DNA of 63,987 nucleotides, filler included, from Nemertoderma westbladi (lineage: Eukaryota > Animalia > Xenacoelomorpha), in the NCBI GenBank assembly GCA_032718475.1. It is 3 parts of 3 records of this genome, joined end to end, with 100 filler letters (N's around TTAATTAATTAA, not from the genome) between each part and the next. Parts side by side here need not be neighbours in the genome. Positions count along the whole stretch, not along the records: positions 20,629 to 46,017 come from JAUCBJ010001390.1; 2 more parts are not named here. One strand, given 5' to 3'. Each line of letters begins with the position of its first letter. The stretch's first letter is position 1. The notes beneath the pieces were generated by a model, which saw nothing but the letters and a program-made list of their open reading frames with translations, ran no database searches and was not told the DNA's origin. This document shows, one piece after another, positions 11,056-56,556 of this stretch. Made by a program: the position numbers and the translations under genes.

Positions 11056-11253
11056 ATAGTAACAATGTGTTGGCAAGCTGTATTTATCGAGGTGTTTGTT
11101 ATTATACATTTATTATACTGTATAATTTGTACACTACCGGTTAAAAAGTACGCATGTGAAGGAATTAGTCCTACCATTGCGCCAATAAAAGATAAGTTAT
11201 TTTCAGTAAAATAAACTTATCATTCGAGGTTAAGACCCCTAGATCCCTTCCTA
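11056..11253 (+). mobile_element. Third fragment of the 416-bp hammerhead element (inverted + forward, no ribozyme)
   Basis: 11056-~11117 is reverse complement of the unit; ~11123-11253 is forward (AATTTGTACACTACC...GACCCCTAGATCCCTTCCTA). It lies within 33-bp satellite units. Confidence 0.85.
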
Positions 11254-11280
11254 CAGTATACTACACTAACAATGGTAATA

Positions 11281-18405: not shown

Positions 18406-18596
18406 GCGCCTTTCAAGTTTGTTAATGCCTTTATTTATTCTAGAATATGTTGTTGCTATAGCAACTTGTAGAATAATTTTAATATGAATAAATAGTTTAC
18501 AGTTAGTGTTTTTTTAAAGAAGTTGCCATAAAATATAACACCTTCTTATTTAATAAAACATTATAAATAAAAATAATTATAGACCCATAAACTTAC

Positions 18597-19369
18597 ATTT
18601 GACCACTTAGAAGAGCAACTGTAAACCGATTGCTAGTTACAACGACGTCATTAGGGGTTACCGTAGCAACAACCAAATGCGGAAGTCTATCGACCACACA
18701 CACCGTGGTGCTGGTCAATCGAACGAGACTCTTAACGCCGAACACCGTCGCCTGGTAACCCGTGACAACCAACTCCCCGACGCGATGTGGTCGCACCTTC
18801 AGTCGCAGTTGCGCTCGCGTCGATATTGGCGCGATCACTACTGATTGGCTGGGACAATCGGCGTCTAAGTCGTTGCAAAGCAACGATATGTTACTAACGT
18901 GGAGCTCTTGGTTAAGAGGATTGTAGAAATCCACTATGACGTCACACCAACATCCGCGGACACAAGTCACTCGAGTTCGTTTATCTTTCGGTTTAACCAG
19001 CTGCATCGGAGAGTAAATAAACACCGGCGTCGATTCGAATTTCCCGCCAGTTTTGGAGGTTCGCGGCAGGAGCGAGGGCTCTAGTTCTAGAAGGCGAAAG
19101 ACTCTGGCCTCGGGGATATTGGATAGTGGTACCGGGGGCAGGATTAGTCCGGTATCTATGGCGACGGCACTAGATTTGGCTACGTGTTCCTTCGCGAGGA
19201 TGGCCAGCAGGTGCGTGTATTCGCGTTGCGCAGCAACGCCGAGTCGCGGTAGTTGAGTGTAGAGGAGTAACGCTAGATGGCGCATCGCTACATCGGGACG
19301 TTCTATTTTACGCGCCGCGTGAATTAATTCGAAGAGAACTTTAAGTTGCAGAGAGGGCCATCCGTCAAT
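18597..19369 (-). CDS. TRAPPC9: Internal exon of trafficking protein particle complex subunit 9
   Basis: IDGWPSLQLKVLFELIHAARKI...RHLALLL...LILPPVP...FIYSP...FYNPLNQELHVSNISLL matches recalled TRAPPC9/NIBP motifs. CAG acceptor at 19372-19370, GTAAG donor at 18596-18592. Confidence 0.85.
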
Positions 19370-19529
19370 CTGGTGGGAACGAGGGAGAGAGAAGGATTAG
19401 TAGTCAACAGGAATGTATAGTACGACACACCAATCACCCTCAAATAATCATTCAATTAACATTACTCGTTATTTAATTGATCGAACACTGGACGTAACTC
19501 GCCCCGCACTGATTAAAAACTTGACTACA

Positions 19530-20528: not shown

Positions 20529-20628
20529 NNNNNNNNNNNNNNNNNNNNNNNNNNNNNNNNNNNNNNNNNNNNTTAATTAATTAANNNNNNNNNNNNNNNN
20601 NNNNNNNNNNNNNNNNNNNNNNNNNNNN
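20529..20628. other. Artificial contig linker (N-run with TTAATTAATTAA)
   Basis: 100-nt N block with a central palindrome that places stops in all six frames; identical to the block at 46018-46117. Confidence 0.95.
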
Positions 20629-20738
20629 CGAAGTTGAACCCAGGTTTACTTACTGTGTTCCAGCTCTTGCCTACTATTGTGTGTAGAGAGATGTTTGAAG
20701 GTAGATTTCTCTAATAGTTGTTTCTTTGCGATATTCGG

Positions 20739-28071: not shown

Positions 28072-28948
28072 ATGGCTGACCCAGATTCGTTTGCCAGGGC
28101 GGAGACCGACCTTCGGGCTCTGTTCTGTGCAATAAAAAAAGAAGAAAAGTGTATCAACCGACGACGAGAACCAGCTAGGAGACATGCTCGCACGGATCAA
28201 TGCTCAGTATCGAGAATCTCAGTACGACTACAGGGCTGCACTGTCAGACTTAGCAGAGTCGCGAAAGGAAACTGCAATAGCGCGAAAAGAAACAATAGAG
28301 GCAAAGGACGATCTGTTAAAGCACCTCCAGTCGGAGAGTTCTCGACAACGGAACTCGAACTCGAACTCCCGCTCATTTGCATCGGTAGTCCGGGGAACTG
28401 GTTACGCGGCCTCAACCGGAAATGCTTACCGCTCCGTCAACGAAAATCCGGCAATGAACTCCATATCGAGACCCGACAGTAACTCCCATACAGGAAGCGG
28501 CGGCGGTTCGGCATCAATGAACCACCCGACAGACTATAGGAGGCCTGCGCCGGTACGGGGTTGTCGGTCTGGTGGCCCTCTCCGTGTTGTAAAGGGAAAC
28601 GAGGATCAAAACGGCAAGAAGGCGCACGTTTACATTGGGCGGTTGGACCCAAACACTACGGAGGATGAGATTAAAGATTTCCTTGAAGGAGAAAGTCTGA
28701 ATATTGATGATGTCCATGCTCTCCCGCTGAAAGATGGGAACTCGCCATTTAGGGGATTCCATATTACGTGCAAACAAGCGGACCGTGATCGCATTATGGA
28801 CCCCAACCTATGGGAGTCAGGTATAGTAATTCGGGACTATTTCCTTACCAACACTGAGCGGCAGGCACTCGGCTTGCGGATGAGACAGCCAAGCCGCCGC
28901 ACAACCGCAACTGCAGACAGTGAGACAAATCATGGCCAGTCTGATTGA
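28072..28948 (+). CDS. LINE ORF1: coiled coil plus RRM-like domain; probable frameshift near the A-run at ~28134
   Basis: HVYIGRLDPNTTEDEIKDFL...FHITC...IMDPNLWESGIVIRDY is a typical RRM-type ORF1 C-terminus (frame 28184-28948). The ATG at 28072 is in another frame. Confidence 0.75.
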
Positions 28949-31738: not shown

Positions 31739-32700
31739 TCGTGCGTAATCTCTTCGTAATACCATATGCATATGTGAAATTTTGTACATTGTTTTTACTG
31801 TACCAATATTTTTGGTTTAATAAATTATATTATAAACAATTGTAATATTAATTAAGCGTTTTCCAGGAGGTATTTTTTTAAAAGTTTAGTAAATGTATGT
31901 TTTGATTTGGAAGCCCGAATATTTTCGGGCAGGTCATTCCAAATTTTGACTCCCTGAAATTTAAATGAGCGGTGCGCGACTAAGAGACGGACATTGGGGA
32001 AATAGTAATTTTTTGATGTTGTCGCTCTCGTGTTATATGTGTGGATTTCTGAGACCTTAGAAAATAAATTTGACAGATTAGATTTGTCGAGATTGTTGGA
32101 TATATCAAACATTGCCGAAGCTACTTGCTGTATGTACAGCTTTTCAATTGGAAGAATTCCTAGCTCTTTGTAGACTGGAGTTGCCGAGGATCGGCAGCTC
32201 TTGTCTACTATTGTGTGTTGTAGAGAGATGTTTGCTAGTAGATTTCTATAATAGTTGTTTCTTTGCGACATTCGGAGTTGAACCAAGGTTTACTGTGTTC
32301 CAGCTCTTGTCTACTGTTGTGTGTTGTAGAGAGATGTTTGCTAGTAGATTTCTCTAATAGTTGTTTCTATGCGACATTCGGAGTTGAACCAAGGTTTACT
32401 GTGTTACAGCTCTTGTCTACTGTTGTGTGTTGTAGAGAGATGTTTGCTAGTAGATTTCTCTAATAGTTGTTTCTTTGCGACATTCGGAGTTGAACCAAAG
32501 TTTACTGTGTTCCAGCTCTTGTCTATCGACCGAACTATAGAGGAACCGGAACCGAACATGGCAATTTTTAAATTTTGATTGTGTTGAATTGTCTATGATT
32601 TTTGTAAGTGTTATTGTTCAATTATTACATTACTTATTATCTTGTTATGATTTGAATCAATATTTTCCATTATTAATCCACTCCATTACTTTCTATATAG

Positions 32701-33182
32701 GCGACCAATCACAACCATTCCCTGATGATTCAGACATGCTCATTTCCGACGCCGACGATGACGTAACACCCAGAAGTATAAATAATTCCTTCGACCAACC
32801 TGGTCCCTCTCCCTCTGGGATTCAACCCCAGGACATTGTGAAAGGAAACCGCTCCAATGAGAAGCCCTTCAGCTGTGATACTTGTGGTAAGACGTTCGCA
32901 TGGAACTGTCGCCTAATTGCGACAATAACCACATGCGACATCTGCAACAAACGTTTCTCTCACCTGTGCAACCTAATCTCGCACAAGCGGACGCATTCCG
33001 GAGAGCGACCGTTCGTGTGCGACACGTGCGGAAAGGGATTTACAGTGAGCGGCAATCTAAACGCTCACAAGAGATTACATACAGGGGAACGACCGTTTAG
33101 CTGCGATACATGCGGTAAATGTTTCTCCCACCGACATCAAGTATCGAGCCACAAATGTATCCGCAGTGAGGAGACTCAGTAA
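32701..33182 (+). CDS. Terminal exon of a C2H2 zinc-finger gene (paralog 1, first finger damaged)
   Basis: Acceptor TAG at 32698-32700; CxxC...HxxxH fingers with SGERPF/TGERPF linkers. Finger 1 lacks its His pair. Intron end and 3' UTR closely match 40990-41655. Confidence 0.75.
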
Positions 33183-33556
33183 CTGTAATGTTTGTAAGAA
33201 ACGTTTATCCACTTCCGGTGATATTGTTGGACACAGATAAACTAAAATTCTGTATGTAGTTAGTTGTAGATTATGATAATTAAATTTAAAAACAGTTAGA
33301 TTATCAGAAGAAATTTAAAGAACCAAATATTTACATTAACAACATTATAACATTATATTATCGCGAAGTGTGAAATGGATGTGGGGAAAGTTGGATATAT
33401 GTAAATCAAATTGATTCCTGATCATTGATAGTAACAATGTGTTGGTTGGCAAGCTGTATTTATCGAGGTGTTTGTTATTATACATTTATTATAGGAAGGG
33501 ATCTAGGGGTCTTAACCTCGAATGATAAGTTTATTTTACCGAAAACAACAAGAACC

Positions 33557-33612
33557 TGTGGCCTAGTGGTTGTAGTCTCGGCTTCCACCTCGAGGTCCCA
33601 AGTTCGAATCCG
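33557..33612 (+). promoter_or_regulatory. tRNA-like head with Pol III A and B boxes (also 33973-34028, partial from 34389)
   Basis: A box TGGCCTAGTGG; anticodon-like arm CTCGG-CTTCCACC-TCGAG; B box AGTTCGAATCC. Confidence 0.75.
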
Positions 33613-33614
33613 AC

Positions 33615-33657
33615 ACCACGCTGATGAGACCCAGTAAGGTCGAAACGCGTACGTGGT
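33615..33657 (+). ncRNA. Type I hammerhead ribozyme (family A, copy 1)
   Basis: ACCACG-CTGATGA-GACC-CAGTAA-GGTC-GAAAC-GC-GTA-CGTGGT. Perfect 6-bp stem I, 4-bp stem II, palindromic minimal stem III ACGCGT; predicted cut after 33651. Confidence 0.92.
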
Positions 33658-34030
33658 TTGGAGAGATATGAGATATTAATTTCAAGAAAAATTACGCGGT
33701 TCCTAAATTTGTACACTACCCGGTTAAAAAAGTACGCATGTGATGGGATTAGTCCTACAATTGCGCCAATAAAAGATAAGTTGTTTTCGGTAAAATAAAC
33801 TTATCATTCGAGGTTAAGACCCCTAGATCCCTTCCTATAATAAATGTATAATAACAAACACCTCGATAAATACAGCTTGCCAACCAACACATTGTTACTA
33901 TCAATGATCAAAAATCAGGGGCTAATAAAATGGCAGCTGGCTTTGAAATTAATACTCCATATCTCAAGAACCTGTGGCCTAGTGGTTGTAGTCTCGGCTT
34001 CCACCTCGAGGTCCCAAGTTCGAATCCGAC

Positions 34031-34073
34031 ACCACGCTGATGAGACCCAGTAAGGTCGAAACGCGTACGTGGT
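34031..34073 (+). ncRNA. Type I hammerhead ribozyme (family A, copy 2)
   Basis: Identical to 33615-33657, 416 bp downstream. Confidence 0.92.
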
Positions 34074-35659
34074 TTGGAGAGATATGAGATATTAATTTCA
34101 AGAAAAATTACGCGGTTCCTAAATTTGTACACTACCCGGTTAAAAAAGTACGCATGTGATGGGATTAGTCCTACAATTGCGCCAATAAAAGATAAGTTGT
34201 TTTCGGTAAAATAAACTTATCATTCGAGGTTAAGACCCCTAGATCCCTTCCTATAATAAATGTATAATAACAAACACCTCGATAAATACAGCTTGCCAAC
34301 CAACACATTGTTACTATCAATGATCAAAAATCAGGGGCTAATAAAATGGCAGCTGGCTTTGAAATTAATACTCCATATCTCAAGAACCTGTGGCCTAGTG
34401 GTTGTAGTCTCGGCTTCCACCTCGAGGTCCCAAGTTCGTAAAACTGTCTCTGTTTCAAATTTTGCCATTTTATTATTACTAACAAATATTTTTAAGACGC
34501 CGTATACACGATGTTCTAGACGCAGAGTAAAAAAATAATACCTTGAATATAAAATAACATAAAATCACTTGAAAAAGGTTCAATAAAGAAAATGAAAAAT
34601 GAATATTTGTAAAGTCTTTATTTGTTCAACCAAATTTTATATATTTGGTATCTGGTGAAGCTCTTTATCAATTTTATCTCATATTACTTGACATTCTATG
34701 ATCGATATAAGTTGATGGCAATGAAACCATCAAATTCCCTTGTGCCTTTAGTACAGTTGACAGTCACTATACTTTACTACAGTACTAATACGATTATTTT
34801 TCAATTTACGCTGTCAGTCTGACTGTGCCCGGTCCGATCACCTCTAATTTCAACAACCGGTAGGGTCTAGGTACTGTATGTGGATGTACATCAGCAGTAG
34901 GCATACAGTACATGGCTTTTTGCCTTTACATGATTTTACACAAAATGCCCTTTTACATCCGAAAAGTAATGTATATGTTTTTGTACAAAAATCACATCAG
35001 GCCTTAATAATATGAAAATGGGAGACATTGTCAGGAATCCGCATGCATAAATGCCCTTTTGCCTTTTTACCGACGATTTGGCTGCAAGGCATGGATCAAC
35101 CTGAACATGCGACTAGTGAATAGACTTTGCAATTGCATTAAGGTAAACCCTAAGCAAACGTGGATACACTTTGAATATTAATTAGGGTTTGGGCCGCCAC
35201 TCGAGTGAGATGAACTGGAGCTAGGATCTGCTGAAGCCGATTAAGGACTAACGAGTTTCAGGGCCTCCACCTGCATTTGACCTACAGTACTGCAGTAACA
35301 GTACAGTGTGACTGTCTGTTTATTGTTTTGGTTAGAAACGCCCGCCTCTGTAACCTGCTCCTTTCCCTCAATTGGTAAAGATGCCGTTTATTTGTTTTGG
35401 TTAGACAAGCCTGCCTCTGTAACCTGCTCCTTTCCCTCAATTGGTTTATGGCGTGTGTTACTTATTTATGAAAAAAAAATGTTTATGAAAAAAAAATTAA
35501 AAAAGTGTTTCATAAAATAAGCGGTAGGGCCTACATATAAAAGTGTTTCACAAAATAAGTTGTAGGGCCTTAAAAGTTTTTCATACAATGGTCCCCAAAG
35601 GAGGCCCCCAAACACGTTCATCCCGCCGATTATAATTAATCAAAGGCTACCAATTAAAG

Positions 35660-38974: not shown

Positions 38975-41562
38975 ATGGAACGGTTTACTTGTGAGTCGGA
39001 CAACGCATTGGTAATTACCAAATCTATGTTCGTGAACATCTGTTCAGAAAATGACACGTTTGTGCGGAGATTTCTCGAAGAATACTTGGAAGTAAACTCG
39101 TGTTTTCTGGACGATTATGTTGTTAAGAATTGTACGGCTGGTCGCATTACTGAGTGGCTACAGCATTCACTCTCCTATCCCTCTAACAACGCCGCCACCA
39201 TCTCGGCTTTGCCCCAATACATAACTCAATCACCGACCACTGTCCCGACTACCGGGTACCGTAAGACCAGTCTGCCACTGCCGCAGAATCCATTGAGGAC
39301 ATCAGTGACGACAAATGGCGGTACTAGGTTCTGCCACAATGACAATCCTGCGACCGGAATTGGTTTCCACCCTAAATCTCGAAACTCGAATCCACACACG
39401 CCACGTACCGAACCCTCATCCATGCACCCTGTGGTGGGGTTACCATATCTCAACCAGGCAGACCTCCCCGGAAATCAAATACAAATGAACCCCAAACTGA
39501 GTCTGATAGACACCAAACCAAACCCCATTGTATCTGAATCGTCTAATAAGACAGCCAGTTTAACTTTATTATCTGATAACAACATATCGTATACCCCCGC
39601 AGTAACCACAACCAACTCAACCAATAATTCTACACAACCTCTATCAGAGCCATCCGATGCTCCGGAAATCATATTCATTGAGACGGAAGACGAACTGGAA
39701 TATAAACCCGACGTAGGTGAGGTTGGCGATGTCTTAAATGAATTTTTCTTCGATATAAATAGACCACATGGAATCCATATAGACAAATCGACCCCCCACC
39801 CCCACACCACCCAGGGTCTCTCCCCACTCACCAACTACTTAACCCCCATCTCTACTCAGCCTCTAGGCGACTTCGACTTAGACCTTCCCAATACCTACAA
39901 CCTCCATTTCAGACCCAAATCAACAGTTTCCGGTATCGGTGAGTTACTATATGTTAGATTAAACAACATTTAGTCCGTATTGCCTGCATAGGAAAACTTA
40001 TCAGGTTCAGGTAACATTTGATGTGGATGATTTTGCTGAATATTCAAATTAAAATAAAAAATGTCAGTCGATATCACATATGTTAGGCCCTATAGTTAAA
40101 ATTATTTAACTTAAATTAAAAACGGTTCCAGGGATAGGTTGTCGGCAGTCTGCGTAGCGTTTACACCCACTTTGTTCTGCAGGGTGATGAGGTCACGATA
40201 CGATTTTGTTCAAAAATATAAAATGGTAGTTTTGGTGGTGTGATATACAGTAACTTATATCTAAAATTGTCTTTGCATACAAGATAATTCATTGCAAGAT
40301 ATCATTATGGGAATTTGTGTTTGCTTTGAATATTTTGCGACTGCAGAACTTATAATGTGCTAACTCAACGACATTACATTGTTAATAAAATACATTGGTT
40401 TGAGTTTATTTGGCGTCTGATCTGATCTACAACATATTGGATAATGTGTTTGTTTTGAATATTTCGCGACAGCAGAAATTGTAAAGTTCTATCTAGAAGA
40501 CAATATTTTTTTATGATAATACATTGATTGTCTTAAATATGTTGCAATTAAGCATTCAATTTAGCCACCAGTAGCACAATCATGTCTATGTTTCCCTTTT
40601 AGTAATTACATTTCCTTAGGCTGTGGAAATATGCTTTTGCAGCATTTAATACAGTAAATTTTAATTTCAAAAACTTTTTTTTAATTTGAATTGACCTGAT
40701 AATGGAACTGTACAAAATTAATATTTTTTTAAATTATATCTCATCTCATATCTCTATCAGAGGTTCGACATGATTCTAGTATAGGCCTATGTTAAAATGA
40801 AGCGGGGGAAATTACACTACATATACAGTAATAGTACGTATTAAGCCATAAGGCATTTAGGCTGCGCTGGTTCAAATCTTAGAAAAGTCATTCCACAATT
40901 TTTCATTTTTGTAAAACACCTTATTATATATTTGGTATCTCCAATCGGATTAAAACCGATAAAACCGAATCGTATATAAACAAATCGGATATTGTGTTGT
41001 GTTGAATTTTCTATGATTTTCGTGAGTTTTATTGTTCTATTATTACATTATTATAGTGCATTACTTACATATTCTGATATTAATCAATATTCTCCATTAT
41101 TAATCTACTCCATTACTTTCTGTAGGCGGCCAATCACAACCATCCCCCGATGATTCAGACATGCTCACTTCCGACGATGACGTAACACACGGAAGAATGA
41201 ATAATTCCTTCGTCCAACAGCAGTTCAGCTGTAATACTTGTGATAAGACGTTCGCATATAACAGTCAACTAATTACACACCAACGGATCCACACCGGCGA
41301 GCGACCTTACCAATGCTGCATCTGTAACAAACGTTTCTCCCAACTAAATTCCCTAAAGATACACAAACGTACGCATAGTGGAGAGAAACCGTTCGTGTGC
41401 GACACGTGCGGGAAGGGATTTACGCAGAGTAGCAATCTAATGCGCCACAAGAGATTACATACAGGGGAACGACCGTTTAGCTGCGATACATGCGGGAAAT
41501 GTTTTTCCCAACGCCATCATGTATCGAGCCACAAATGTATCCGCAGTGGGGAGACTCTGTAA
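38975..41562 (+). CDS. C2H2 zinc-finger protein (paralog 2); exons 38975-39938 and 41126-41562
   Basis: Donor G|GTGAGT at 39938/39939 (phase 1) fits acceptor TGTAG|GC at 41125/41126 (phase 1). Four fingers with TGERP/SGEKP linkers; S/T/P-rich middle region. Confidence 0.75.
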
Positions 41563-41653
41563 CTGTAATGTTTGTAAGAAACGTTTCTCTACTTCCGGTG
41601 ATATTGTTGGACACAGATAAACTAAAATTCTGTATGTAGTTAGTTGTAGATTA

Positions 41654-41860
41654 TGTGACGGGATCTGAGAATCCCGATTTATCCGGTTATCTTGTTTACG
41701 CGTCCCCGCCGTGTGTGTGAAAAGAGTTCTGATATTATTGAGTTGCTCTGACCATTGTTGGTAACGTATGTATAAATATATATAATAAAGTATAAGCACA
41801 GTTGGCAATAAAGTGATAGTTGAGTACCGGTAATATAGTTGAATGATGATGGCGGCAGTG
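41654..41860 (+). mobile_element. Possible LTR fragment with primer-binding-site-like motif
   Basis: Starts TGTGACGG exactly where homology with the paralog 1 UTR ends, contains AATAAA, and is followed by TGGCGGCAGTGG. No canonical CA end and no second LTR seen. Confidence 0.3.
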
Positions 41861-42917
41861 GACGGTGACAAGAGTTACCGTTCCGCCCTAACTGAACTGA
41901 CTAACTGAGTAAATGAATGTGATACACCGACCGGTAATATACTGCTCTAGTTTGGCCATATTACTCAGCGGATGCCTGCCCCCCATTGGCTGATAACATA
42001 ATTCTCGCCCTCCCATCTCTCTGGGAGTGTTCTCCCCTCACTACTGTCACTCTCTCTCTCTCGGAGGTATAACCTCTGACCCCCTTTGTGTGTGTCCTTT
42101 GGGGTTTCTCGTCCCCGTTTATTGGGGTGATACGAGGTTGATTGGCAATCAACCTCGTGCTCCTAATATTGCTTAAAGCTAACTTTGTGGGGTGGTTAGC
42201 GGAATTGAATTCGCTAACACTCCCCCCCATGCTATCTTCCCGGTGAGAAGATAGCATCCACCTCTAGTGCGCTACAATTCCGCTGGATCCCGATCTACTA
42301 TCGGGTGTGGGGTGGAGCTATTTTTTCGGAGCCGGCTTTCCAGGCCGCTCCCTATGGGTATGATATCGCTACCCCGTCTTGGTACAACTTTACCTATCTT
42401 GCACCAAGACATCTGGCGTCACGTGTCGGGCCGATCGTGCGCTTCTCTCACACAACTTTTGTTTCCCCAACACTTTCACCACTCTAACCCCGCACTTAAC
42501 TGACTCTAAGCACACTCTCATCCTATCTCTCGGACCTCCCTGTCCCTTGTTCTGCCTCTTGCCTCTCCCCCCCCCCCCCCCCCACACTTGAATTGCACCC
42601 ACACTCTCTCCGCGCTATCACTCAACCCCCATCTCAGCCCGCTTACTCCTGACGAGTCTCACCCCCCTCCCTGTGCCGTCGCACTCAGGAAGTGTGAAGT
42701 CGTCCAGCGTCTCGTTTGTCATAGTCAATTGGTCCCCAGTCCCAGTAGCTAATTGGAAAAGGTTATATGGCTATAGTATTTACTTTGATTATATTTGCTT
42801 ACTAGACTAATGATTACTACATACGTACATACTAATTGCACTTTTAATTATTTAAATTTCGCAGTTAGGAGTTCGTACTTCTCACGTGGTGCCTTCCAGG
42901 CATCCCACATCCAAGTC

Positions 42918-45495
42918 CTAGTTCGTTCCACCTGACTTTGGGAACCATCTCCAGTCCTTCCCTCTGTCGTCCTCTTTTCTTGGTCGTTTCCTGGCCGCTG
43001 CTGCTCCCTTGGTCTTATCTCCCTTCAGGCTCTTGACCCTCGCCGTCACCTCTCTACTAATCCCGGTCGTCGACTCCTTGGGCGCTGGTGTTATTAGCTC
43101 CCGATATCGCTTCGCGGGTGGCCCCTCCGAGTGGCCCTGTTGTCTCCCCCTGGTGGCGTCCCATAGGATCACTTTCATCACCCGTGGCACATGCTCCGCC
43201 AAGAAATCTCTGAACTCCCCTCTGTTCTGTGGCATCCACCTGTCCATTTATCACCCCGGCATACGACGCCGCCGTCGCTACCTCCTGGTAGGTAAACAGA
43301 CGTCTCCATTTGATAATCTCCAAGTGGGCCTCCTGGTTGATATTAAAGAAGCCCCACCGGAACTCCTGGGCCTTCATACGTTGCCGAGTCATGGCCCCGA
43401 TGTCGGCCCACTCCTCGAAGATCCTAAACTTCTCTTCGTCGTCCATCCAGTCGCACTGGCGTCCGTAGTGCCCCCGGAAGTTACACTTCGAACACCGGTT
43501 GTGCAACCGTGGACACGCCCCCATCCTGTGGCTCAACTCGCGGCAGTAGAGACAACTAGTCCCTTTCTGGAACCGGTACAGACAGCTCCTTTCCTGGTGG
43601 GTTTGCCTCCCACAGTAATCATAGCCGAGCACCAATGTCTCCCGCCCCACGTCGTCTTTTGTCCCAAGCGATCTCCGCGGTCTGTGGAGTCGCTGGTAAG
43701 CGAACTTTTGGACATTAGCGTCCCTTTCCACGTCTATCTTCTCGCACCTCCCGGGCATCGTCTCCCCGAATACTACCCGTGGTGCCGTTCCCGGTTGCTC
43801 GCCCAACCTGATGGTGCTCCCCGCGAAATCCATCGTCGGCTCCTCATGCACCCAGGCCCGCTTGCCGGGTCTATCCCAGAAGGCCCTCGCCCCACTGGCC
43901 GTCACCACCCTCCCGCCAACCCAGTCCGTGTCCGAGTGGCCGATTCTCCCGATGGGCGGCATCTCTCCGAACTCGTCGTCATCCTCGTCCTCCTCTGGGA
44001 GTGGCTCCAACCCCGGTATCCCGGTGGACCCACTGCGTCCCTTCCCACCTTGGCTCTCGCCCGTGACTTTCCATCCTTCCAGCTCCCCTAGCCTCCTTAG
44101 CGGGTGATTGCCCTCGGTGCCCGCTGGTATGGGCGTCGTCTGCAATCCTGATGTCGACTGTTTCGGTGATTCCACCGTCCACCCTAATTCTCACCCTAGA
44201 GACTCCCCCGAACTCCCTGATGACGTCCAACGAAGTTCGTCTAAGGCCGCCTGTTCCTCGAAGCCGTAGCTCTGCCCTCTAGCTTCTTCCTCCCTTTCCT
44301 CTGCCTCTCTCCTTTCCTCTCTAGCGATTTCTTCCAATCGCTTCGCTTCTCGTCTATCCGCCTCTAGCTGCTCCCATCTCTGATACGGCGTATCCACCTC
44401 CCCGTCTACCAGATGTCGGCAGTTATAGTACACCGACTCGCCCTTCAGCCCCGGGTGGTCTACCAGACCCTCGAAAGCCGTCTTGAAGGCTCTTCTGTAG
44501 TTCAGGGGTGATCCCGATAGCAGGAATGCCGTTGGTTCTTTCCCAATGACGATGGTCATGAATAGGTTTAGCAAACCCATCATTATCCAGTCCTCCTGCA
44601 GGATATATCGCTTCTGATATACCTTTATCGCTCCTCTCCGGAATTGATACACCTCTTGTTTCCCTGGCCTCGCTCCCCACTTCAGCGAGTTTGCCAACTC
44701 CGCTCCGTACTCCTCTCTGAACTTACTCCAGTCCATTGGTTTGTGACACACGAGCCCCATTAGCTGGCCCATCGCCACCGCTCTACAATGGCCTGAGTTC
44801 TCCACTAGTCCCAACCCGTCTGGTGCTGTCATAGCCATGTAGACCGTCTGCATGTCCAGGATGTTGGGGGTGTCCGGACCGATGATTCTCTCCGCATCGT
44901 CGCGGATCGCCGATCCCACCTTCGTCGTTGACTTCTCTCTCACTAGGATTTGCACCGCCTTTGGCAACCGGTTCAACTTCAGCCCGTTCTTCTTTCCATA
45001 CGTCCCTAGATCGAATAGGAATATATCCCCATTTGGCGCGGCCAAATGTAGGAGTATGGTTCTGGCCAACCCCGCCGATCCTCTCCTCAAACCTTCCTCG
45101 TCTTCCACAGTCCCCTCATCGTCTAGGACCATGTATCCTCCCCTGCTGATGGACTCTACGAACCTCTTCCAATCCTTTCTCGGTGGCTCCTTCGCGTACT
45201 TCGGAATCCCGAACTTCGCCTCGTCTCCCTTCACCACGTAGTGGAAATGCTCGAAGATCGCATTGTCCAGCGACGGCGTCCCGTAGGTCCCGACCAGCCG
45301 CTGTTCGTGCACCTTCCTGAAATGGTCCTCTAGCGCTCGCGCTTTGTGACCTCTCTCTAACCGCTCGTAGTATCCCCTCGTCTTCTCTTCCGGATGCCTC
45401 TCGGTGAAATCCACCAGTATCTCCTTTCCTCCTAACTCCGCCTTTCTCTTTCGGACAAGTTTCTCTGCCATCTCGAACTCTCCCCAATGGCTCAC
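42918..45495 (-). pseudogene. DEDDy-type 3'-5' exonuclease + coiled coil + CCHC knuckles; one in-frame TGA and a probable frameshift
   Basis: MVLDDEG...LLHLAAPNGDIFLFDL...LPKAVQILVREKSTTKVGSAIRDD...ILDMQ resembles the WRN/EXD2-like exonuclease. ORFs 44191-45495 and 43057-44175 share a frame. CLYCRELSHRMGACPRLHNRCSKCNFRGHYGRQC knuckles. Confidence 0.65.
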
Positions 45496-46017
45496 CCGTT
45501 AGGTGGTGCCTTGCCAAGGCGCTGTACGGATGAGTGATAAAGTTAGGATGGTTTATTCAGTTCGATAATGGCCTATTTCTCCCAGAAACCTAAGTTATAG
45601 CCTAATTTTCCTAACTAATTTTCTAAAACTACCAAATTGTACTAAATTTCGCAATTTTGTCCGTTACTTTAATTATGTTCCAGAATATTTTCCTACTGTT
45701 ACCATCATTTGTCTAATTTCTACCTTTTATTTTATTTTAATTTAATTCAATCCTACTACTGTGCTACTACTTATTCCTGCCAATGGATTATTCTATTTTA
45801 TAATCCACATTCTGGCCTACTCTGTGGGCTTGTGCAGTACAATAGTATGGGTCGCGTGGCCTACACGATTTATCCAGCTGTACTCACGTGCCCCCCTCTC
45901 GCTACTCACTACTAACTAATACTTATATTATACATACCCTTCTACCACTAACTCTTACTAACCGGTACTACATACCCTCTTACTAACTTCTAACTCCACT
46001 AACTCTTACTAACCGGT

Positions 46018-46117
46018 NNNNNNNNNNNNNNNNNNNNNNNNNNNNNNNNNNNNNNNNNNNNTTAATTAATTAANNNNNNNNNNNNNNNNNNNNNNNNNNN
46101 NNNNNNNNNNNNNNNNN
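46018..46117. other. Artificial contig linker
   Basis: N-run with central TTAATTAATTAA. Confidence 0.95.
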
Positions 46118-46500: not shown

Positions 46501-47550
46501 GATTTTGTTTTCTATATCTATTTTTTTATTTATAAAGCTACTGTTCTGAAACTTTAACACAAAGATCTGTGATCTTTTACTAAGAAAACTAAGTATGGAT
46601 AGCTTCGTAAACCCGTTTGTTCGAAAAATAGGGCACTTTTTGTGCAGGTCGGTTTTTTTCTAAAATTGTATACTTTTTTAGGCTTTTATAATGTAAAAAA
46701 TAGCGTGTAGAAAGAAGGATCAGTACTACCTCCTGGGTTGAAGTTCTCGGTCCAAGATTTTGGCACAATGAACCTAGGTATAAGGCAATCTTTTATGAAA
46801 ATTTCAGCAAAAATTATTATTTTTGAATAATTTATGGGGACTTTAGTATGTTTGGGCTATTATTTTAGGAATCACATATTTTGTGATAGACAAAGGGTAG
46901 TAGTTCCAAAATCGGTTCTAGAACATTAAAGCTGTCATGTTTAACAAAATAAATACCTACCGGTACTCACGAATGTAGCCCTAAACCTGCTGAACATGAA
47001 AAATAAAAACGTGTAGGAATTTAGTGAGAAAAAATGTCGAAATCGACAAACTGAGAAAAATGTTGTTTTATACAGAGTCATGAATATAAGCCATAAAGAC
47101 TGTTGTTGAAAAGTGCAGTTTTGTGGCGAAAAGTGGGGAAAGCCGATGTCACCACATGAAAGCCCTTCTATCAAACTACAAAAATAGATGAAAACATATA
47201 TTTTTGTAAATTTTCGAAAATTTAACTTGTGTTGTGGTCTTAATTTAATACTACTACTACTACTACTAGGTCGAGCGAACTCGGACAGTGGAAATGAGAT
47301 CCTTCCAGGCTTCCCGATTCTCCATAGTTGTCGCAATTTCGTTTCTCCTAAGTTCAGTATCCCTTTCAAGTTGATCTATATATGTTATGGCCGGTCGTCC
47401 ACGACTACGCTTTCCATGAGGTGGTTGCCAGAAAAGTAGATCTGGTATGACCTCGTCTTTACTTCGCCAGCAGTGCCCACTGAATCTTAATCTGCGTTCA
47501 CGGAGGGTGGTTGATACAGGTGGTATTGTACCATAAAGCTCGGCGTTTGT

Positions 47551-49015
47551 ATACATAGTAGAAATGTACCGAACAACAAGAGTCCCACAAGAAATGAAAA
47601 CAAATAAGTTAGTGCCAGTTCCCAAGAAGGGCAACCTAACACTCTATGGTTCTTTTCGGGGAATCTCATTGATCTCGATTGCTGCAAAGCTATACAATAG
47701 GATTCTATTAAATCGCATCAGGGATCCCATTGAGAGACTGCTCTGTGGAAATCAGAATGGGTTCCGTAAAGGTCGTGGGACCATGGAGCCCATTTTGGCA
47801 CTTAGAAGGATAATTGAAGAATTATCAAAAAAGAAAGACAGGCATCTGGCTGTTATCTTTGTTGACTTCTTCAAGGCCTTTGATTCAGTCTCTCGCTCAC
47901 GTATGTTCAGCATACTTTCATTATATGGGATTCCTGATGAAATTATTGCAGCAATCAGATCAATATACGATGGTTCGACAACATTTGTGTCTACTGTTGA
48001 CGGTGACACAGAACCATTTGAAGTGTTATGGGGCGTCCTCCAAGGAGACACACTTGCACCATTCTTGTTCATTATTGTGGTTGACTATGTTCTACGCATG
48101 TCCTTATATCATCATAATGATGATGGGGTGATGATAACTCTACCTACTGGCTCCAGAAGTCGAGGAAATCCTGCCAAGTACCTAACTGATCTAGACTTTG
48201 CTGATGACTTAGGAGTACTCTCAGAATCATTAGAGGGAGCCCAACGGCTCCTCAGCTCATTAGAACATGCTGCTTCTAGTGTTGGTCTTTTTATTAACTC
48301 CAGAAAGACCAAAATTCTGACAGTTAACTTTGAAAGTCCTCAGCAAGTCTCTGATCGGATGAGCATAAGCTCAAAGGATGGTATGCTTGAGCATGTGGAC
48401 GACTTCTGTTACCTGGGATCATGGATCCGGAAGTCAGGTGAGGACCTTCGAATACGTAAGGGAAAGGCATGGGCAGCCTTGAATAGGCTTTCCAGGATTT
48501 GGAAGTCACCGAGAATTAATCGGAAACTTAAGGTCCAATTATTTAGAGCAGCAGTAGTTCCAGTACTCCTCTACGGGAGTCCATGCTGGGCTCTAACTGC
48601 TGAGGACACCAAATCTCTTGATGGCACATTCACAAGAATGCTACGCCGGGTTCATTGTGTCAAGTACAATGCACACATCTCCAACCAGACACTATTTAAC
48701 ATTGGAGGTGTCTCATTGGTTCCCCCAAGCTTGACACTAGAACAAAATCGCCTCCGCTTTGCAGGACATTGCTTTCGCCGTGAGGACCAGCCAGTGCATA
48801 ATCTTGTACTTTGGCAGCCTCATGGAGTGAATAAGCATGGTGGACAGCCCATGACTTTCTTGAGACGCATCTTAAAGGACACTGGCCTTAAAGATGCGGA
48901 TGATCTAGCAAATGTCATGGGTGATAGGGAGTTGTGGCGGTGCAATTTTGTTGACAAGCCGGCACAGCATTCCTAAAAATGCAGCTGCAATGCAGCATGC
49001 CGATCCTAGTAGTAG
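47551..49015 (+). mobile_element. RTE-clade LINE family B, copy 1 (5'-truncated; ORF 47564-48976)
   Basis: PVPKKGNL...FVDFFKAFDS...GVLQGDTLAPFLF...DFADD...RLRFAGH; ends GATCC-TAGTAGTAG; interrupts family A. Confidence 0.92.
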
Positions 49016-50077
49016 TATGTGTTGTCTCCAGCTAATGTTTAGGGCTGCCCTTAGTAGTCTTGTGTAGCAACCATCAATTCGTTGTTCAAGTGATTTAGTC
49101 AGTGTCCACTGTCCAGGTCTCACCCCCGTATAAAAATACACTTTCCACTGTGGCTCGAAAGAACTTAGTCTTCAGGTGCCTGGAGAGATCTGATTTCCAG
49201 ATGGTATCCATTTTTGATAGAGCTACCCAAGCCTTTGCTTTCCTAACTTCTATGTCCCTTTTTGCTACTCTCTATCCATGATCCAAGGTACTGGAAGTCA
49301 TCGACCTTCCTTAGTTGATTATTATCAATGGTTGTCAAGTTTCCATCAACATTAAAGGTCATGAATTCGGTCTTGGTAGCATTTATATGCAATCCAACCT
49401 CCTTAGCAGCCCTCTCCACTTTATTTAGTAGAAGCTGTGCATCTGCTAGCGTATTAGAGAGCAGGGCGATGTCATCCGCAAAGTCGGTGTCTGTGACTGT
49501 AGTTGCCGGATATCTACTACTTCTGCGTTCTTGAAGTGTGAATCCCAGATCTTCACCCTTTGTGGCCGTCCTTATTGCGTAATCCAGCACAATTACAAAT
49601 AGTAATGGTGCTAATGTGTCGCCTTGCAGTACGCCAGCCAGGATTGAGAAAAACTCAGTTTCACCATCTGGTGAGAGTACCTGCGCTTCTGTGTCACAAT
49701 ATAACAATCCAATGCCAGCAACAATTACTTCTGGTATTCCATAAGATCTTAGGATTTCAAGCATTTTACCTCTATGGATGGAGTCGAATGCCTTCTTGAA
49801 GTCCACAAAAGTCATGACTGCGGGGAGATTCTTTGACTTAATTCCTTCAATCAGTCACCGTAGTGCAAGTATCTGAGCTATTGTTGATCTACTTGGTCGA
49901 AATCCGTTTTGGCTCTTACGCAGTAGTTTCTCTATGTGAGGCCTAATCCTATATAGAATCATTTTATTGTATATTTTGGCAGCTACCACAAGCAGACAGA
50001 TCCCACGATAGTTTGTTGGTATGCCGAGGTCTCCTTTCTTGGGGAGAGGCTTTAGTTGACCTTTAGTCCAAATTGGT

Positions 50078-51245
50078 ACTACTACTACCAGGATCGGCAT
50101 GCTGCATTGCAGCTGCATTTTTAAGAATGCTGTGCCGGCTTATCGACAAAATTGCACCGCCACAACTCCCTATCACCCATGACATTTGCTAGATCATCCG
50201 CATCTTCAAGGCCAGTGTCCTTTAAGATGCGTCTCAAGAAAGTCATGGGCTGTCCACCATGCTTATTCACTACATGAGGCTGCCAAAGTACAAGATTATG
50301 CACTGGCTGGTCCTCACGGCGAAAGCAATGTCCTGCAAAGCGGAGGCGATTTTGTTCTAGTGTCAAGCTTGGGGGAACCAATGAGACACCTCCAATGTTA
50401 TATAGTGTCTGGTTGGAGATGTGTGCATTGTACTTGACACAATGAACCCGGCGTAGCATTCTTGTGAATGTGCCATCCAGAGATTTGGTGTCCTCAGCAG
50501 TTAGAGCCCAGCATGGACTCCCATAGAGGAGTACTGGAACTACTGCTGCTCTAAATAACCGGACCTTAAGTTTCCGATTAATTCTCGGTGACTTCCAAAT
50601 CATGGAAAGCCTATTCAAGGGTGCCCATGCCTTTCCCTTACGTATTCGAAGGTCCTCACCTGACTTCCGGATCCATGATCCCAGGTAACAGAAGTCATCC
50701 ACATGCTCAAGCATACCATCTTTTGAGCTTATGCTCATCCGATCAGAGACTTGCTGAGGACTTTCAAAGTTAACTGTCAAAATTTTGGTCTTTCTGGAGT
50801 TAATAAAAAGACCAACACTAGAAGCAGCATGTTCTAATGAGCTGAGGAGCCGTTGGGCTCCCTCTAGTGATTCTGAGAGTACTCCTAAGTCATCAGCAAA
50901 GTCTAGATCAGTTAGGTACTTGGCAGGATTTCCTCGACTTCTGGAGCCAGTAGGTGGAGTTATCATCACCCCATCATCATTATGATGATCTAAGAACGTA
51001 TCTAAGAACGTATCTGATATGATCTGCGTAGAACATAGTCAACAACAATTATGAACAAGAATGGTGCAAGTGTGTCTCCCTGGAGGACGCCCCACAACAC
51101 TTCAAATGGTTCTGTGTCACCGTTAACAGTAGACACAAATGTTGTCGAACCATCGTATACTGATCTGATTGCTGCAATAATTTCATCAGGAATCCCATAT
51201 AATGAAAGTATGCTGAACATACGAATTGGTGTCTTTCCGAATCAT
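50078..51245 (-). mobile_element. RTE-clade LINE family B, copy 2 (5'-truncated)
   Basis: Near-identical reverse complement of ~47900-49015; (TAG)n tail; 11-bp TSD TCCAAATTGGT (50067-50077, 51246-51256). Confidence 0.92.
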
Positions 51246-51526
51246 TCCAAATTGGTGGTGGCTTTTCCCCTTTTAACATCCGGTTGCAAACATTCAATAA
51301 TGGTCTATTTAGCACTCCGGTTTTCCATACCTCCGCTGGGATTTCATCTAATCCACTCGCTTTATTATTGGACATGCTTTTAATGCTTCTTTGGAGTTCG
51401 GCAGGTGTGAAGTCCCCTGTTTCTATAGGTAGTGTCTTGTCATATATTTAATAATACTGTGATAGAGAATAGAGCTAATAGATAAATATGCCTAATAGTG
51501 TGTACCGGTAACTATTCACTGTTTAC

Positions 51527-52573
51527 CTTTTGCCAAACGACGCCTCCGTCCTCTAACCTTCGCCTCTTCGGCGGGTTCGATTTGCGTTTCATTAGTAAAT
51601 CGGTTATCGGGAGTTCGAGAATAACGTAAGCGGGATCTTCTGGGAATTTTGGGAGAAGTTGTGGTTGTAGAGAAACGGCGGACTCGAAGAACAACAGAAC
51701 TGCGGAGTAGAACAGCGGTTTGTGTAGGGCGGGTTGGTAGAAGGATTCGTCTGTGGGCGGCCCAGCTTCCTTGTAGTAGGCCGTCCAAGTGTAGACCCAT
51801 CGCTGGGTTAGTGACCCACCGGCTGGGAACACAACGCCGGGGTTCCACTGACAGCGTTGAGCGGTGCGACGCAACAAGGAGGTAAGTCGCTCTATGGGCC
51901 GATCCAACGCGGTCTCCCGTTCGGCGAACTTTGGGTTGGCGTGCGAGTGGATGATGTACGGAAGAGCTTTCTGGAACCATTTGTTCGCCTGTTTAGCGGT
52001 AATTACCGACTCGCATTGTTTATCCTCGAACAGTAACGGCAATATCTCGCGAACAATAACCCCGCGGTAGGGATTTAAAACAGCTTTATATCCCTCCTCC
52101 TTTTCCTTCTCGAGTAAATCTTCTATTACTTGAGGTCCGTCTGTGGCTAATCGTTCTGGGAAACCCTTTAGCATCGCGAACTGCAGACGACATCGTTCGA
52201 CCGCGTCATCGCAATTACTTATAAGTTTATTAAACGCCGTCCGCTGCATCGCAACCGGAAGTAGTTTGAATATTTGTTTAGATTTATAGTTCGGATCGGT
52301 GCCGGATAGACCCCCGACCAATTCTAGAAGTTCGTTAGCCACCGCTGGGGTTCGCCAGTGATTGTTTATCATCTCCCCCAGTATACCGGCTGCTTCCCCA
52401 GTGTTGCCAAGGTGTTTCTCAAGCCGATATGACGTCACCAATACCGTAGTGTTTCCGGGGTACAAACTTTTGGCGGTTAGAACGATGGATCTCGCACAAT
52501 CCTTGTTTTTTAATACCAGTTCGTTCAGAGGGGGTAATACCCAGTCGGGTATGTCATTGATCTCCGTGCCCAT
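51527..52573 (-). CDS. INTS10: Integrator complex subunit 10, first coding exon
   Basis: ARSIVLTAKSLYP...YRLEK...IFKLLP...ERCRL...FPE...LNPYRGVIVREILPLL matches the recalled INTS10 N-terminus (AKAWLITARSLYP...VNCFRKLFVCDVLPL). ATG at 52573; donor AAG|GTAAAC at 51527/51526. Confidence 0.8.
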
Positions 52574-53869
52574 CTTACATCGGATATCCGTTAAATCAGT
52601 CACCAAATAGCCAAGCCGAATGCCGTGACGCTCACGAGTTATAGGTTAATATTTATAACAAGAGTCCAAAAACATTTATGTTCTGAGTTCTGAGGGCTGA
52701 GCAGCTGAGGGCTGAGTTGGTGTGCAAATATGAAATATCGATAACAAACAGAAAAAAATAATATCGCCTGCGCTTGGTGATGGTACCCCTATCGGCAGAC
52801 CGGGATTGTCCTGTTTTGGGGCCTCCAAAACCAGGCAGGTGAGTAAAGGCGCAGGTTACAGAGGCGAGTTGAAAGGCGAGTTTCGGGTTGAAACCAAAAC
52901 AATAAACGTGAGTTAGGAATGTTGTAGAATAGAAAACCAAATTAAAAACCACATTTAACTATTTAATTGAGAATCAACAGTCAGTCTGTCAGTATGCAAA
53001 TGCAGTATAGACCTACCGGAACTCTGAAAAGGCTGGAGGCCCCCTTCACACTTCAGGATAGAACCGGCAGACCGGTCTGGTACCGCCTGACCGTATACAC
53101 AACAGCACAACCTAGGGACCTGCCTTGTTGCCTACGGGCTGGGCTATATTATTACTGCAGTACTGCATTACCGGTAATCAATATCATATAACATCATTGC
53201 TCCTTTCATGCTTTCGAATTTCCCTCCTAAAAATTCAAATAGGATACGAATATCCCTCCTATTTCGCAAGTATAATGTGCACAGCATACATACATGCGAT
53301 GACTACCATCAACTTGTCAGCGGATTGAGTGGACGAGCAAACACTGCTGACAACGACAAAAACGGAGACAAGGGGGGGGGGGGGGGGGACTGGACGCAAA
53401 ACCCGCCTTGGCGAATTAAAATCCCGCCTCAATGTTAAATTCTCAATTTATGGAAAGGAGCAGGTTACAGTGGAACGTTATTTTAACCAAAACAATAAAC
53501 TAAACACAATAGAACAGGTTACAGTTTTATTTTTGCTCGTAAACAGCTGTTATTTGCGTCCAATTTCCCCTAGAGAGGGATGAATTTTTATTGCGTCCAT
53601 TTTCCACCCCCCCCCCCCCCCCCCCCCCCCCCCCCACCCCCCCTATCTGCCAAAACGACACCGTGCCCTGTGCTCTTGACTGTCGTCAAGTTATCATACA
53701 CATTAATTAATGTTAATATGTCTGTGATAACATGAATGTCTGTTTTCGTCGTATAAACATACGGATGGACGAATATCACGTATAAGATTTTGTAAGATAT
53801 TTTATTTCGTTAATATACGAAAAATAATTGACTGAACAGGTTATTAGCCGTGAAAAGACAATGAGGTGT

Positions 53870-55390: not shown

Positions 55391-56193
55391 TTACAAAGTC
55401 GTGTGGCTACTAAGGAACTGGAGAGGGGCGGGCATATGGCCTTACCGGTCAATTTACAGTTCTCGTATATGGATATATACAGTATATATATATTATATGA
55501 ATTATTATCATATATTATATATACTGTACAATATTATGGTGTGGCCCAAAAGCAACGATTTTGGTTCGTTTCACATCACATGTCTTCATATTCACGAATA
55601 ATGGCATCTTTTATTCAAAAATTATAAAATACTTAAGGCCCTAGCCCTAATTAGGTCTTTAACAGCTGGTGTAGTTGTATAAAGTATGTAACACATTCTA
55701 ACTCAAACTCTAGAAGAGGCAACATTAACATTTATTATTATTAATCGTAAATTGCCTGACAGCCATAGATGTGGCCTTTTACTTGCAGTAGGCCTACCGG
55801 TAACGCTAAGCGTAAGCTGGATAAATTATTTTAAAAAATGTTTAATTTGCAGTTGTTCATCATCAAATACAATCGTTTCGTAATGTTGTTTTCAACTATT
55901 TACAGTACCGGTACTTATTGTAATGTTCTTTACTTACATTGCTCTACTTTTGTAATTATATTCGCACGTACCTTAACTGTAAGTAAAAGTGCTAGTTTAT
56001 TCACATAGTAGTTTGTTTATATATTTGTTATTCAAGTAAGATACACTTGTGTGCTTAGTCGGTATTCGCTGCTTTTCGCTACATTCGACTTCTCATAGCT
56101 CGCTCCGTAGTCGGCCTGTCAGTGCGGGAGATACTGCGACATTGGTTTCGACGAGTTGTTAAAACTTTCAGAGCAACGCCCACAGGGAACAAC

Positions 56194-56556
56194 ATGTCTG
56201 CTGCATGTGATGCTGCACTGAGTGCCTTGCAACGGTACTTAGATGCTTTCAATGCAGAGGATCTAGACGGCATTATTTCACATCTCGATGAAAACGTTGA
56301 AACCTTTTGCAACTCCGAGAAAGCATCCACTGGTAGGGATGTAATCCTGCCATCTTATTCCGCGGACTTTGTTATTCATAAAAGAGTGAAGGTAATTCGA
56401 CCGGCGGAAGCCAAGATGGATGGAGATGGTAACGTTAGGGTTTATGTTGGTCTTTCTACCCAAACTCACAGCCTGGATGTTACGTACGTGTATCGAATAG
56501 ATGACATGAAACAAATCAGACACGAGATCAATAATGTCAAAGAAATAGTTAATTAA
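56194..56556 (+). CDS. SnoaL-like / NTF2-fold protein (120 aa)
   Basis: ALQRYLDAFNAEDLDGIISHLDENV...TGRDVILPSY is the characteristic SnoaL-like N-terminal pattern. ATG at 56194; no intron. Confidence 0.7.
   Translation: MSAACDAALSALQRYLDAFNAEDLDGIISHLDENVETFCNSEKASTGRDVILPSYSADFVIHKRVKVIRPAEAKMDGDGNVRVYVGLSTQTHSLDVTYVYRIDDMKQIRHEINNVKEIVN

Follow-up and report, generated by a model that had tools for sequence, protein, structure and literature searches.

The DNA analyzed here, which we call the window, is a 63,987-nt stretch made of three joined parts of the Nemertoderma westbladi assembly GCA_032718475.1, with positions 20,629 to 46,017 coming from JAUCBJ010001390.1; the spacers at 20529-20628 and 46018-46117 each consist of a 12-base spacer with 44 N on either side, and adjacency of the joined parts is not implied. 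Near the right end of the JAUCBJ010001390.1 part lies a GC-rich island whose minus strand encodes a predicted DEDDy-type exonuclease followed by zinc knuckles, and an original prediction made from the sequence had proposed that it might be the cargo of a mobile element or virus, or else a lineage-specific gene. The first open reading frame (ORF) runs from 45498 to 44191, with an ATG at 45471, and specifies 426 aa before a TGA stop at 44193-44191. Its frame stays open past this TGA for another 377 aa (44190-43057), so that the exonuclease ORF and the CCHC ORF share one frame with a single stop between them, as had been noted from the start, and a third ORF of 109 aa lies in a different frame of the same strand at 43247-42918. 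The charged coiled coil and the basic tail of the original prediction were likewise recovered, the former as an E/R-rich charged run at residues ~365-400, positions 44272-44379 of the minus strand, found by sequence inspection (the coiled coil itself being a prediction), the latter as K or R at 16 of the 54 final residues of the frame-shifted 109-aa ORF.

The main ORF has no introns, and an ORF of at least 377 codons arose in just 3 of 1000 base shuffles of the island stretch. A 389-aa ORF on the plus strand (42922-44091) was rejected as an antisense shadow, because the sequence variants described below fit the minus-strand frame instead. GC content is 42% in the whole window and 36% in the left flank but reaches 57% in the ORFs. 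The abrupt shift in composition thus holds for the ORFs, but the step extends beyond them, with GC at 50% over 41999-42917 and 38.5% over 45472-46017.

The predicted DEDDy-type 3'-5' exonuclease domain spans 44497-45219 on the minus strand, with putative active-site residues D117 (45123), E119 (45117), D192 (44898), Y289 (44607), and E293 (44595). Searches of the nuclease ORF against Pfam, NCBIfam, and PHROGs returned no match, and an ESM Atlas match to PF01612 at 0.88 serves as a lead only. We took 40 bacterial PF01612 proteins as the reference family and built them into a profile, which placed the nuclease ORF at the top of 339 window ORFs (E 0.0044; runner-up 0.52) with a score of 10.5 bits, a value reached by none of 1000 shuffles (best shuffle 2.6). 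Comparison by hhalign with a profile of 36 of the 40 proteins gave P 66.6 and E 5e-5, while the knuckle ORF, used as a control against the same profile, gave P 0.1. When the sequence was aligned with 31 of the 40 proteins, all five invariant columns were matched (D117, E119, D192, Q286, and Y289). D117, E119, and D192 correspond to the ExoI D-x-E and ExoII D of DEDDy enzymes, and in the ExoIII Y-x3-D motif the tyrosine and the preceding Q fall in invariant columns, with Glu293 at the Y+4 position and Asp294 next to it. By these alignments four of the five DEDDy catalytic positions are present, and the sequence match to the family appears weak but real. An AlphaFold model built with a DEDDy alignment reached a predicted local distance difference test score (pLDDT) of 70.6 and a predicted template modeling score (pTM) of 0.70, and it resembles DnaQ/RNase H-like enzymes, which bears out the fold that had been anticipated: its top Foldseek matches were Trypanosoma brucei RNase D (TbRND), Egalitarian, Rrp6, and EXD1, all outside the PF01612 subfamilies that fed the alignment, and VIA comparisons gave Z 11-13.7 with NrnC, TbRND, WRN, RNase D, and Nibbler. 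Because a DEDDy alignment went into the model, this fold result is not independent; the hidden Markov model result with its 0 of 1000 shuffles is independent.

Downstream in the frame are three CCHC zinc knuckles with the CX2CX4HX4C pattern, recognized in the minus-strand sequence at 43623-43582, 43554-43513, and 43494-43453. The second and third are complete, while the first has lost its first ligand in this copy. The best PDB sequence match of the knuckle region is the zinc-finger domain of T. brucei RNase D, a weak one (E 0.14), and the Atlas match to zf-CCHC at 0.85 is again only a lead. Of five DNA runs that contain the stretch, we used four (X1, X2, X3, and X5; three samples from three studies), whose contigs were aligned on 40500-46010. 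At position 43622 the whole aligned depth in all four runs carries a different base from the window, so the defect of the first knuckle is peculiar to the window copy. In the C-terminal part with the basic tail (42918-43247, minus strand), too, the shift of frame is confined to the window copy. Loose contig ends at 43246 in X1 (10 and 3 contigs), X2 (7), and X5 (2) reveal 14 extra bases in other copies, and the frameshift that had been flagged near 43250 for a check at the level of reads is therefore explained as a 14-nt deletion at 43246-43250 on the minus strand of the window copy.

The variants among the copies come from the best 40 of 773 rows in a first alignment and the best 40 of 90 in a second, ranked by support and not by codon position, and the 51 listed rows that fall inside the ORFs were classed by codon position and synonymy. 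Segregation among copies is seen for 32 of them, with 22 at third positions (p 4.5e-5) and 18 synonymous, while the remaining 19 are private changes, near-fixed against the window copy, with only 3 at third positions and 15 non-synonymous. The window copy is decayed, and the family gene is clearly conserved under purifying selection. Between the TGA and the first in-frame Met (43962) lies a low-complexity linker without an ATG (43965-44190, minus strand), and within it third positions account for 13 of the 16 variants that segregate (p = 1e-4). Such coding constraint in the exonuclease frame, in a stretch with no start codon of its own, argues that the stretch is translated in the nuclease frame and that the protein of the family is likely a single chain. 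We thus consider it likely, on sequence grounds, that the family encodes a single protein of ~855 aa with exonuclease, charged helix, three CCHC knuckles, and basic tail, in good agreement with the interrupted protein of ~860 aa originally proposed. The private changes are also strand-biased, 10 of the 19 being C-to-T on the plus strand (G-to-A on the gene strand) with 1 in the reverse direction, and 4 of the 10 being at CpG; this bias is partly a matter of base composition, and deaminase editing is possible.

The island belongs to an interspersed repeat of high copy number. On the 5.5 kb examined, 11,880 contigs aligned in X1, at 85-100% identity to the window (from >99% to <90%), 7,148 in X2, 7,755 in X3, and 528 in X5, with a single variant carried by up to 53 distinct contigs. 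Summed depth in X1 is mostly 20-60k over the ORFs, rises to 236k at 42156-42339 and falls to a few hundred in the flank, and it is high over 41972-46010 in all four runs. At 16 variant sites in the ORFs the median summed depth is 10-14k, and depth at the ORF variant sites is ~400x that of long diverged contigs and 23-121x that of identical flank contigs. As summed contig depth is no copy number, we claim only that the element is present at least tens to hundreds of times. Among the contigs, the joint 44359>45687 marks a deletion derivative, and a head-to-tail joint (42585>42053) suggests a short non-autonomous derivative.

The boundary of the insertion can be placed on one side. Immediately to the left, on the plus strand, a host C2H2 zinc-finger exon (Pfam zf-C2H2) and its 3' untranslated region (UTR) occupy 41104-41655, and it is this UTR that the element interrupts. 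The C2H2 gene itself (41104-41562) is paralogous to 32541-33182, and the paralogous locus (32541-33275) is without the insertion. The two 3' UTRs align at 88% over 349 nt and part at 41655/33275, after which no further host UTR is seen up to the gap. In both X1 and X3, ten contigs end loosely at 41671, where the X3 consensus has TG. Taken together, the paralogue break and the loose ends indicate that the insertion starts at 41654 and ends in CA on the gene strand, a TG...CA-type terminus seen at this one end only. The visible element thus covers ~4.4 kb (41654-46017, minus strand), with its 3' terminus at 41654 and its 5' part lost in the gap. A high copy number in all four runs, an insertion boundary and an empty-site paralogue together support the proposal that the exonuclease is cargo of an uncharacterized mobile element. 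The two C2H2 exons with their common 3' UTRs (32541-33275 and 41104-41655) belong, judging by read depth, to a larger family.

Several features of the non-coding parts can be added. A hairpin cluster in the 3' non-coding part (42040-42420, minus strand) has the highest depth of the element and folds better than any of 100 shuffles (z = -6.7); it includes an AATAAA at 42123-42118 and has no Rfam match at E <= 10. Its depth is ~5x that of the gene, and the hairpin at 42375-42412 is absent from other copies. Upstream of the gene, a candidate branch point, pyrimidine tract, and AG acceptor (45522-45546, minus strand) lie ~50 nt before the ATG and form the sole such site within the 546 nt upstream of it, a weak candidate because three X1 contigs differ from the window there. 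An upstream hairpin at 45760-45910 does not fold significantly (z -1.8). Unstranded tandem repeats occupy the contig end (45946-46017), at high depth and with joints that go back near 45945-46004. Two candidates were rejected: a Helitron-type end, for which a single CTAG near 41950 lies off the mapped terminus (judged by eye), and a word near 42414 that resembles a primer-binding site and varies in other copies.

Our preferred hypothesis, to which we assign a probability of roughly one half, is that the island represents a decayed member of an abundant mobile-element family, likely the 3' end of a long terminal repeat (LTR) retrotransposon, and that this family likely encodes a predicted 3'-5' RNA exonuclease of ~855 residues. 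The gene would best be read, by analogy, as an accessory third gene, as in the rotifer elements Juno and Vesta, but with its domains arranged as in trypanosome RNase D. The TG...CA terminus inside a 3' UTR, the diverged copies, the private frameshift and knuckle defect, and the coding variation on both sides of the TGA are observed; assignment to the LTR class is likely, and unproven because the 5' half is missing. The candidate 3' LTR measures, in its simplest reading, 345 bp (41654-41998, minus strand, TG...CA), and its outer end is firm.

A number of observations weigh against this hypothesis. The inner end of the candidate LTR is ambiguous, with alternatives to 41998 near 42452 and 42514: 2 of 65 TG sites begin TGT and follow a purine run of 13/15, and the longest inverted match to the terminus, found at 42452, is 5 nt. 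The purine tract before the candidate LTR (42002-42020, minus strand) is a weak polypurine candidate, as the minus strand is 59% purine here. Depth over the candidate LTR is ~1.5-7k, roughly 5- to 20-fold below the interior and the opposite of the usual LTR pattern, although this fits subfamilies with a common interior but different LTRs, as does one X5 contig that is aligned over 42244-41979 and then diverges. No gag, pol, second LTR, or target-site duplication is visible in 41654-46017, with the gap at 46018. As for the protein, the fourth acidic position is Glu293 and not Asp, which could change or abolish the exonuclease activity; the profile-profile comparison supports the match over ExoI-ExoII only (75 columns); and the good AlphaFold model needed the DEDDy alignment, a single-sequence model reaching a pLDDT of 32. 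Finally, the evidence for selection comes from a subset of the variant rows, and the TGA codon is not among the best 40 of 90, so that a private nonsense change of the window copy is likely but inferred and not observed, with read-through a possibility.

Exonuclease cargo of this kind has precedents. A 2017 study of bdelloid rotifers (PMC5408684) describes DEDDy ORF3s in the LTR retrotransposons Juno and Vesta, whose TG...CA LTRs measure 159-551 bp and whose ORF3s are typically made from spliced messages, and DnaQ-like domains are listed among the known accessory domains of LTR elements (PMC6338049). Going by these published descriptions, the Nemertoderma element resembles Juno and Vesta in carrying an RNase D-like exonuclease ORF on a repeated element, in a TG...CA end of similar size and in possible splicing. 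It differs in joining its nuclease to a charged helix, three CCHC knuckles, and a basic tail within one protein of ~855 aa, whereas the rotifer DEDDy ORFs are reported to have a DEED motif and no coiled-coil domains; the acidic set here is D-E-D-E in place of the DEED of the rotifer ORF3s (PMC5408684). Judged by the published description of the rotifer elements, Juno and Vesta copies are few, while the Nemertoderma family is abundant. The same text leaves as an open question why retroelements carry 3'-5' exonucleases, notes that catalysis was not shown for the rotifer proteins, and finds their within-genome evolution apparently neutral (PMC5408684). Exonuclease cargo of mobile elements is thus known, and this case stands out by its unusual triple-knuckle architecture, its abundance, its clear selection, and the lack of a detectable homologue in the collections searched below. 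A literature search found no transposable-element gene that combines an exonuclease with zinc knuckles, most subscription papers being outside its coverage.

The closest analogue of the protein itself is a host enzyme. T. brucei RNase D (PDB 7C42/7C45) likewise has a DEDDy domain followed by tandem CCHC fingers, and deletion of its CCHC domain is reported to reduce RNA binding and cleavage sharply (PMC7797062). It is the top Foldseek match of our nuclease model (E 8e-6) and in VIA it aligns over the greatest length (200 residues, Z 12.8, root-mean-square deviation 3.7), and its knuckle match at E 0.14, mentioned above, is independent of the alignment and comes with equal spacing between knuckles 1 and 2. 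As described there, TbRND is mitochondrial, has four fingers and carries a linker of 28 residues (PMC7797062), while the Nemertoderma protein has three knuckles ~280 residues from the nuclease, sits on a mobile element and is 17-18% identical to TbRND. The likeness is one of domain layout, and at that level TbRND may be viewed as a functional analogue. If the preferred hypothesis is correct, the gene would stand third, in the env position that follows pol and precedes the 3' LTR, its protein would be made from spliced RNA and would oligomerize through the charged helix, and the knuckles and basic tail might hold single-stranded RNA, as in the trypanosome enzyme, while the predicted nuclease trims RNA 3' tails. 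Nibbler trims small RNAs, and 3' uridylation restricts LINE-1. In the mechanism that we consider most likely, the protein would act as a selfish helper that trims or removes 3' tails, either of the element's own RNA, which it might thereby mature, or of the host's small silencing RNAs, favoring spread of the element. The abundance of the family, its purifying selection and a knuckle array with a biochemically understood analogue in T. brucei would make a role in counter-silencing or tail trimming testable with one protein.

Among other explanations, the one we would take most seriously, although we regard it as considerably less probable, is a non-autonomous element whose sole gene is a gag-like nucleocapsid-exonuclease fusion, mobilized in trans by the reverse transcriptase (RT) and integrase of another element. 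The three canonical knuckles with a basic tail resemble a nucleocapsid region, the deletion derivative and the head-to-tail joint show that shortened or rearranged forms exist, and the 546 nt before the ATG appear to be non-coding, with tandem repeats at their far end. Yet neither Pfam nor the billion-scale protein searches revealed a capsid-like domain, an ORF3 would also be compatible with a non-coding spacer that holds an acceptor site, and the 5' half lies beyond the contig end. In a related and still more doubtful form of the idea, the element would be an abundant RT-less retroelement parasite with TG...CA ends, whose sole gene, an exonuclease-nucleocapsid, trims host silencing RNAs or strips inhibitory 3' tails; if this were true, trypanosome RNase D would have a counterpart carried by a mobile element, and the success of that element would be directly testable as counter-defense.

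The search for relatives bears on the explanations that remain. A word search of 5.8 billion proteins returned none for the nuclease ORF (candidates of 234-746 aa) or for the knuckle region (candidates of 100-321 and 323-2000 aa), and phmmer against 1.84 billion representatives found no homologue, its one match (E 2.8e-4) being a repeat-rich bacterial-type protein that we judged spurious. Phage records held no relative; plasmid records gave two matches at E 0.01, the one inspected falling in an unrelated 704-aa ORF; genome contigs gave one locus, matching 42 residues of an unrelated protein; and there were no relatives in viral contigs and no confirmed ones in metagenome contigs. The searched collections are poor in animal repeats, so these blanks mean isolation from the searched set and not absence in nature. 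They also illustrate that exonuclease cargo can escape Pfam and billion-scale searches and is thus easily overlooked in repeat annotation.

One could also suppose two nested elements, an LTR-type insertion at 41654-41998 and an unrelated, abundant gene-bearing repeat from ~42050 to the gap, of DNA-transposon or virus-like nature. Depth does climb ~tenfold between 42032 and 42123, and DEDDy domains occur both in giant viruses (BFVD matches) and in Dada transposases, a superfamily within which a C-terminal CCHC motif also occurs (PMC3706591). But the diverged X5 contig spans the depth step, the BFVD matches are at <=20% identity and reflect the fold only, and the absence of any viral relative in the viral-contig searches speaks against the viral cargo initially considered. 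In Dada, moreover, the nuclease is described as lying inside a DDE transposase (in fungal and algal families), the genes mostly have introns, and many elements target small nuclear RNA or tRNA genes (PMC3706591); here the nuclease begins ~100 residues from the ATG, the ORF has no transposase match, and the target is a C2H2 3' UTR. We hold nesting to be improbable.

Slightly less probable again is an accessory 3' ORF of a giant Penelope-like element of the Terminon or Naiad type, with the hairpin cluster in the place of the hammerhead. Terminons, which are Athena Penelope-like elements, carry accessory DEDDy and coiled-coil ORFs (PMC6431247, PMC5408684), Naiads are described as reaching very high copy numbers without canonical hammerheads (PMC8557442), and the tandem joint is accompanied by a short GA microsatellite near 42053. 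Against this, motif scans of the element (41700-46017) found no strict hammerhead core and no telomeric repeat or array. The four one-mismatch hammerhead matches all lie inside ORFs, with none in the 3' part. Rfam gave no match in the element either, yet it also missed the true hammerheads of the window at its gathering threshold, and it is thus the motif scans that carry the weight of this negative. Terminons would be expected to have a 3'-terminal hammerhead followed by reverse telomeric repeats, while the visible end here is a sharp TG...CA terminus in the 3' UTR of a gene, which favors an LTR element. The window's own hammerhead family (cores at 7792, 33621, and 34037) is dissimilar in sequence, and the speculative link to it that had been raised is not upheld. 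Naiads can encode selenoproteins (PMC8557442), but a selenoprotein reading fits poorly: the TGA sits in a Ser/Gly-rich linker, and none of three loose motif matches downstream of the ORF has a fold like a selenocysteine insertion sequence (by an ad hoc pattern, not SECISearch).

A pseudogene of a host gene or multigene family that processes small RNAs, like Nibbler, EXD1, Egalitarian, or TbRND, has very little probability left. In its favor, the exonuclease-plus-knuckle layout does exist in a trypanosome host enzyme (PMC7797062), and Foldseek places Egalitarian and EXD1 near the top. A host small-RNA exonuclease (Nibbler/Mut-7, EXD1, EXD2, Egalitarian) would, however, be expected to be a conserved single-copy gene with orthologues, whereas this gene is intronless and has no homologue among the 1.84 billion representatives. 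Its many diverged copies and the insertion into another gene's UTR, with an empty-site paralogue, largely refute this explanation, and the lineage-specific gene contemplated at the outset is, as a single-copy host gene, not supported either.

The surroundings of the element also required one correction. It had been stated that no RT lies nearby, but RVT_1 ORFs occur at 47537-48973 (E 1e-28), 49246-49854, and 50124-51038, the first ~2 kb from the start of the exonuclease ORF and across the 100-base spacer at 46018-46117. As they lie beyond this gap and look like separate long interspersed nuclear elements (LINEs), they are probably separate copies outside the exonuclease element; by their motifs they look like ordinary RTE-type LINE pieces. 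The JAUCBJ010001390.1 part ends at 46017 and cuts off the 5' part of the element, and since the element runs off the contig end, an RT of its own may lie beyond it.

Elsewhere in the window, the hammerhead repeat family occupies 7696-8077, 11056-11272, and 33412-34438, with identical cores at the three positions given above and a 416-bp unit in tandem and inverted arrangement; presumably these repeats are of the Penelope-like pseudo-LTR or retrozyme type. Scans of the whole window found neither a tRNA gene nor an Rfam family. Its LINE-type RTs, its C2H2 genes and its ORFs resembling TRAPPC9 and INTS10 mark the window as animal DNA. Adjoining the RT fragments is an uninterrupted 377-aa ORF (51512-52645, minus strand) that matches Integrator subunit 10 (Pfam INT10, E 1e-15). 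A seemingly complete LINE lies at 28136-31738 (plus strand), with a weak RRM match in ORF1 and an endonuclease and RT in the 929-aa ORF2. Other long ORFs match WD40 (1158-2309, plus strand), a RING finger (10301-10816, plus strand), a piece of TRAPPC9 (18593-19396, minus strand), and, weakly, a SnoaL/NTF2-like protein (56059-56556, plus strand).

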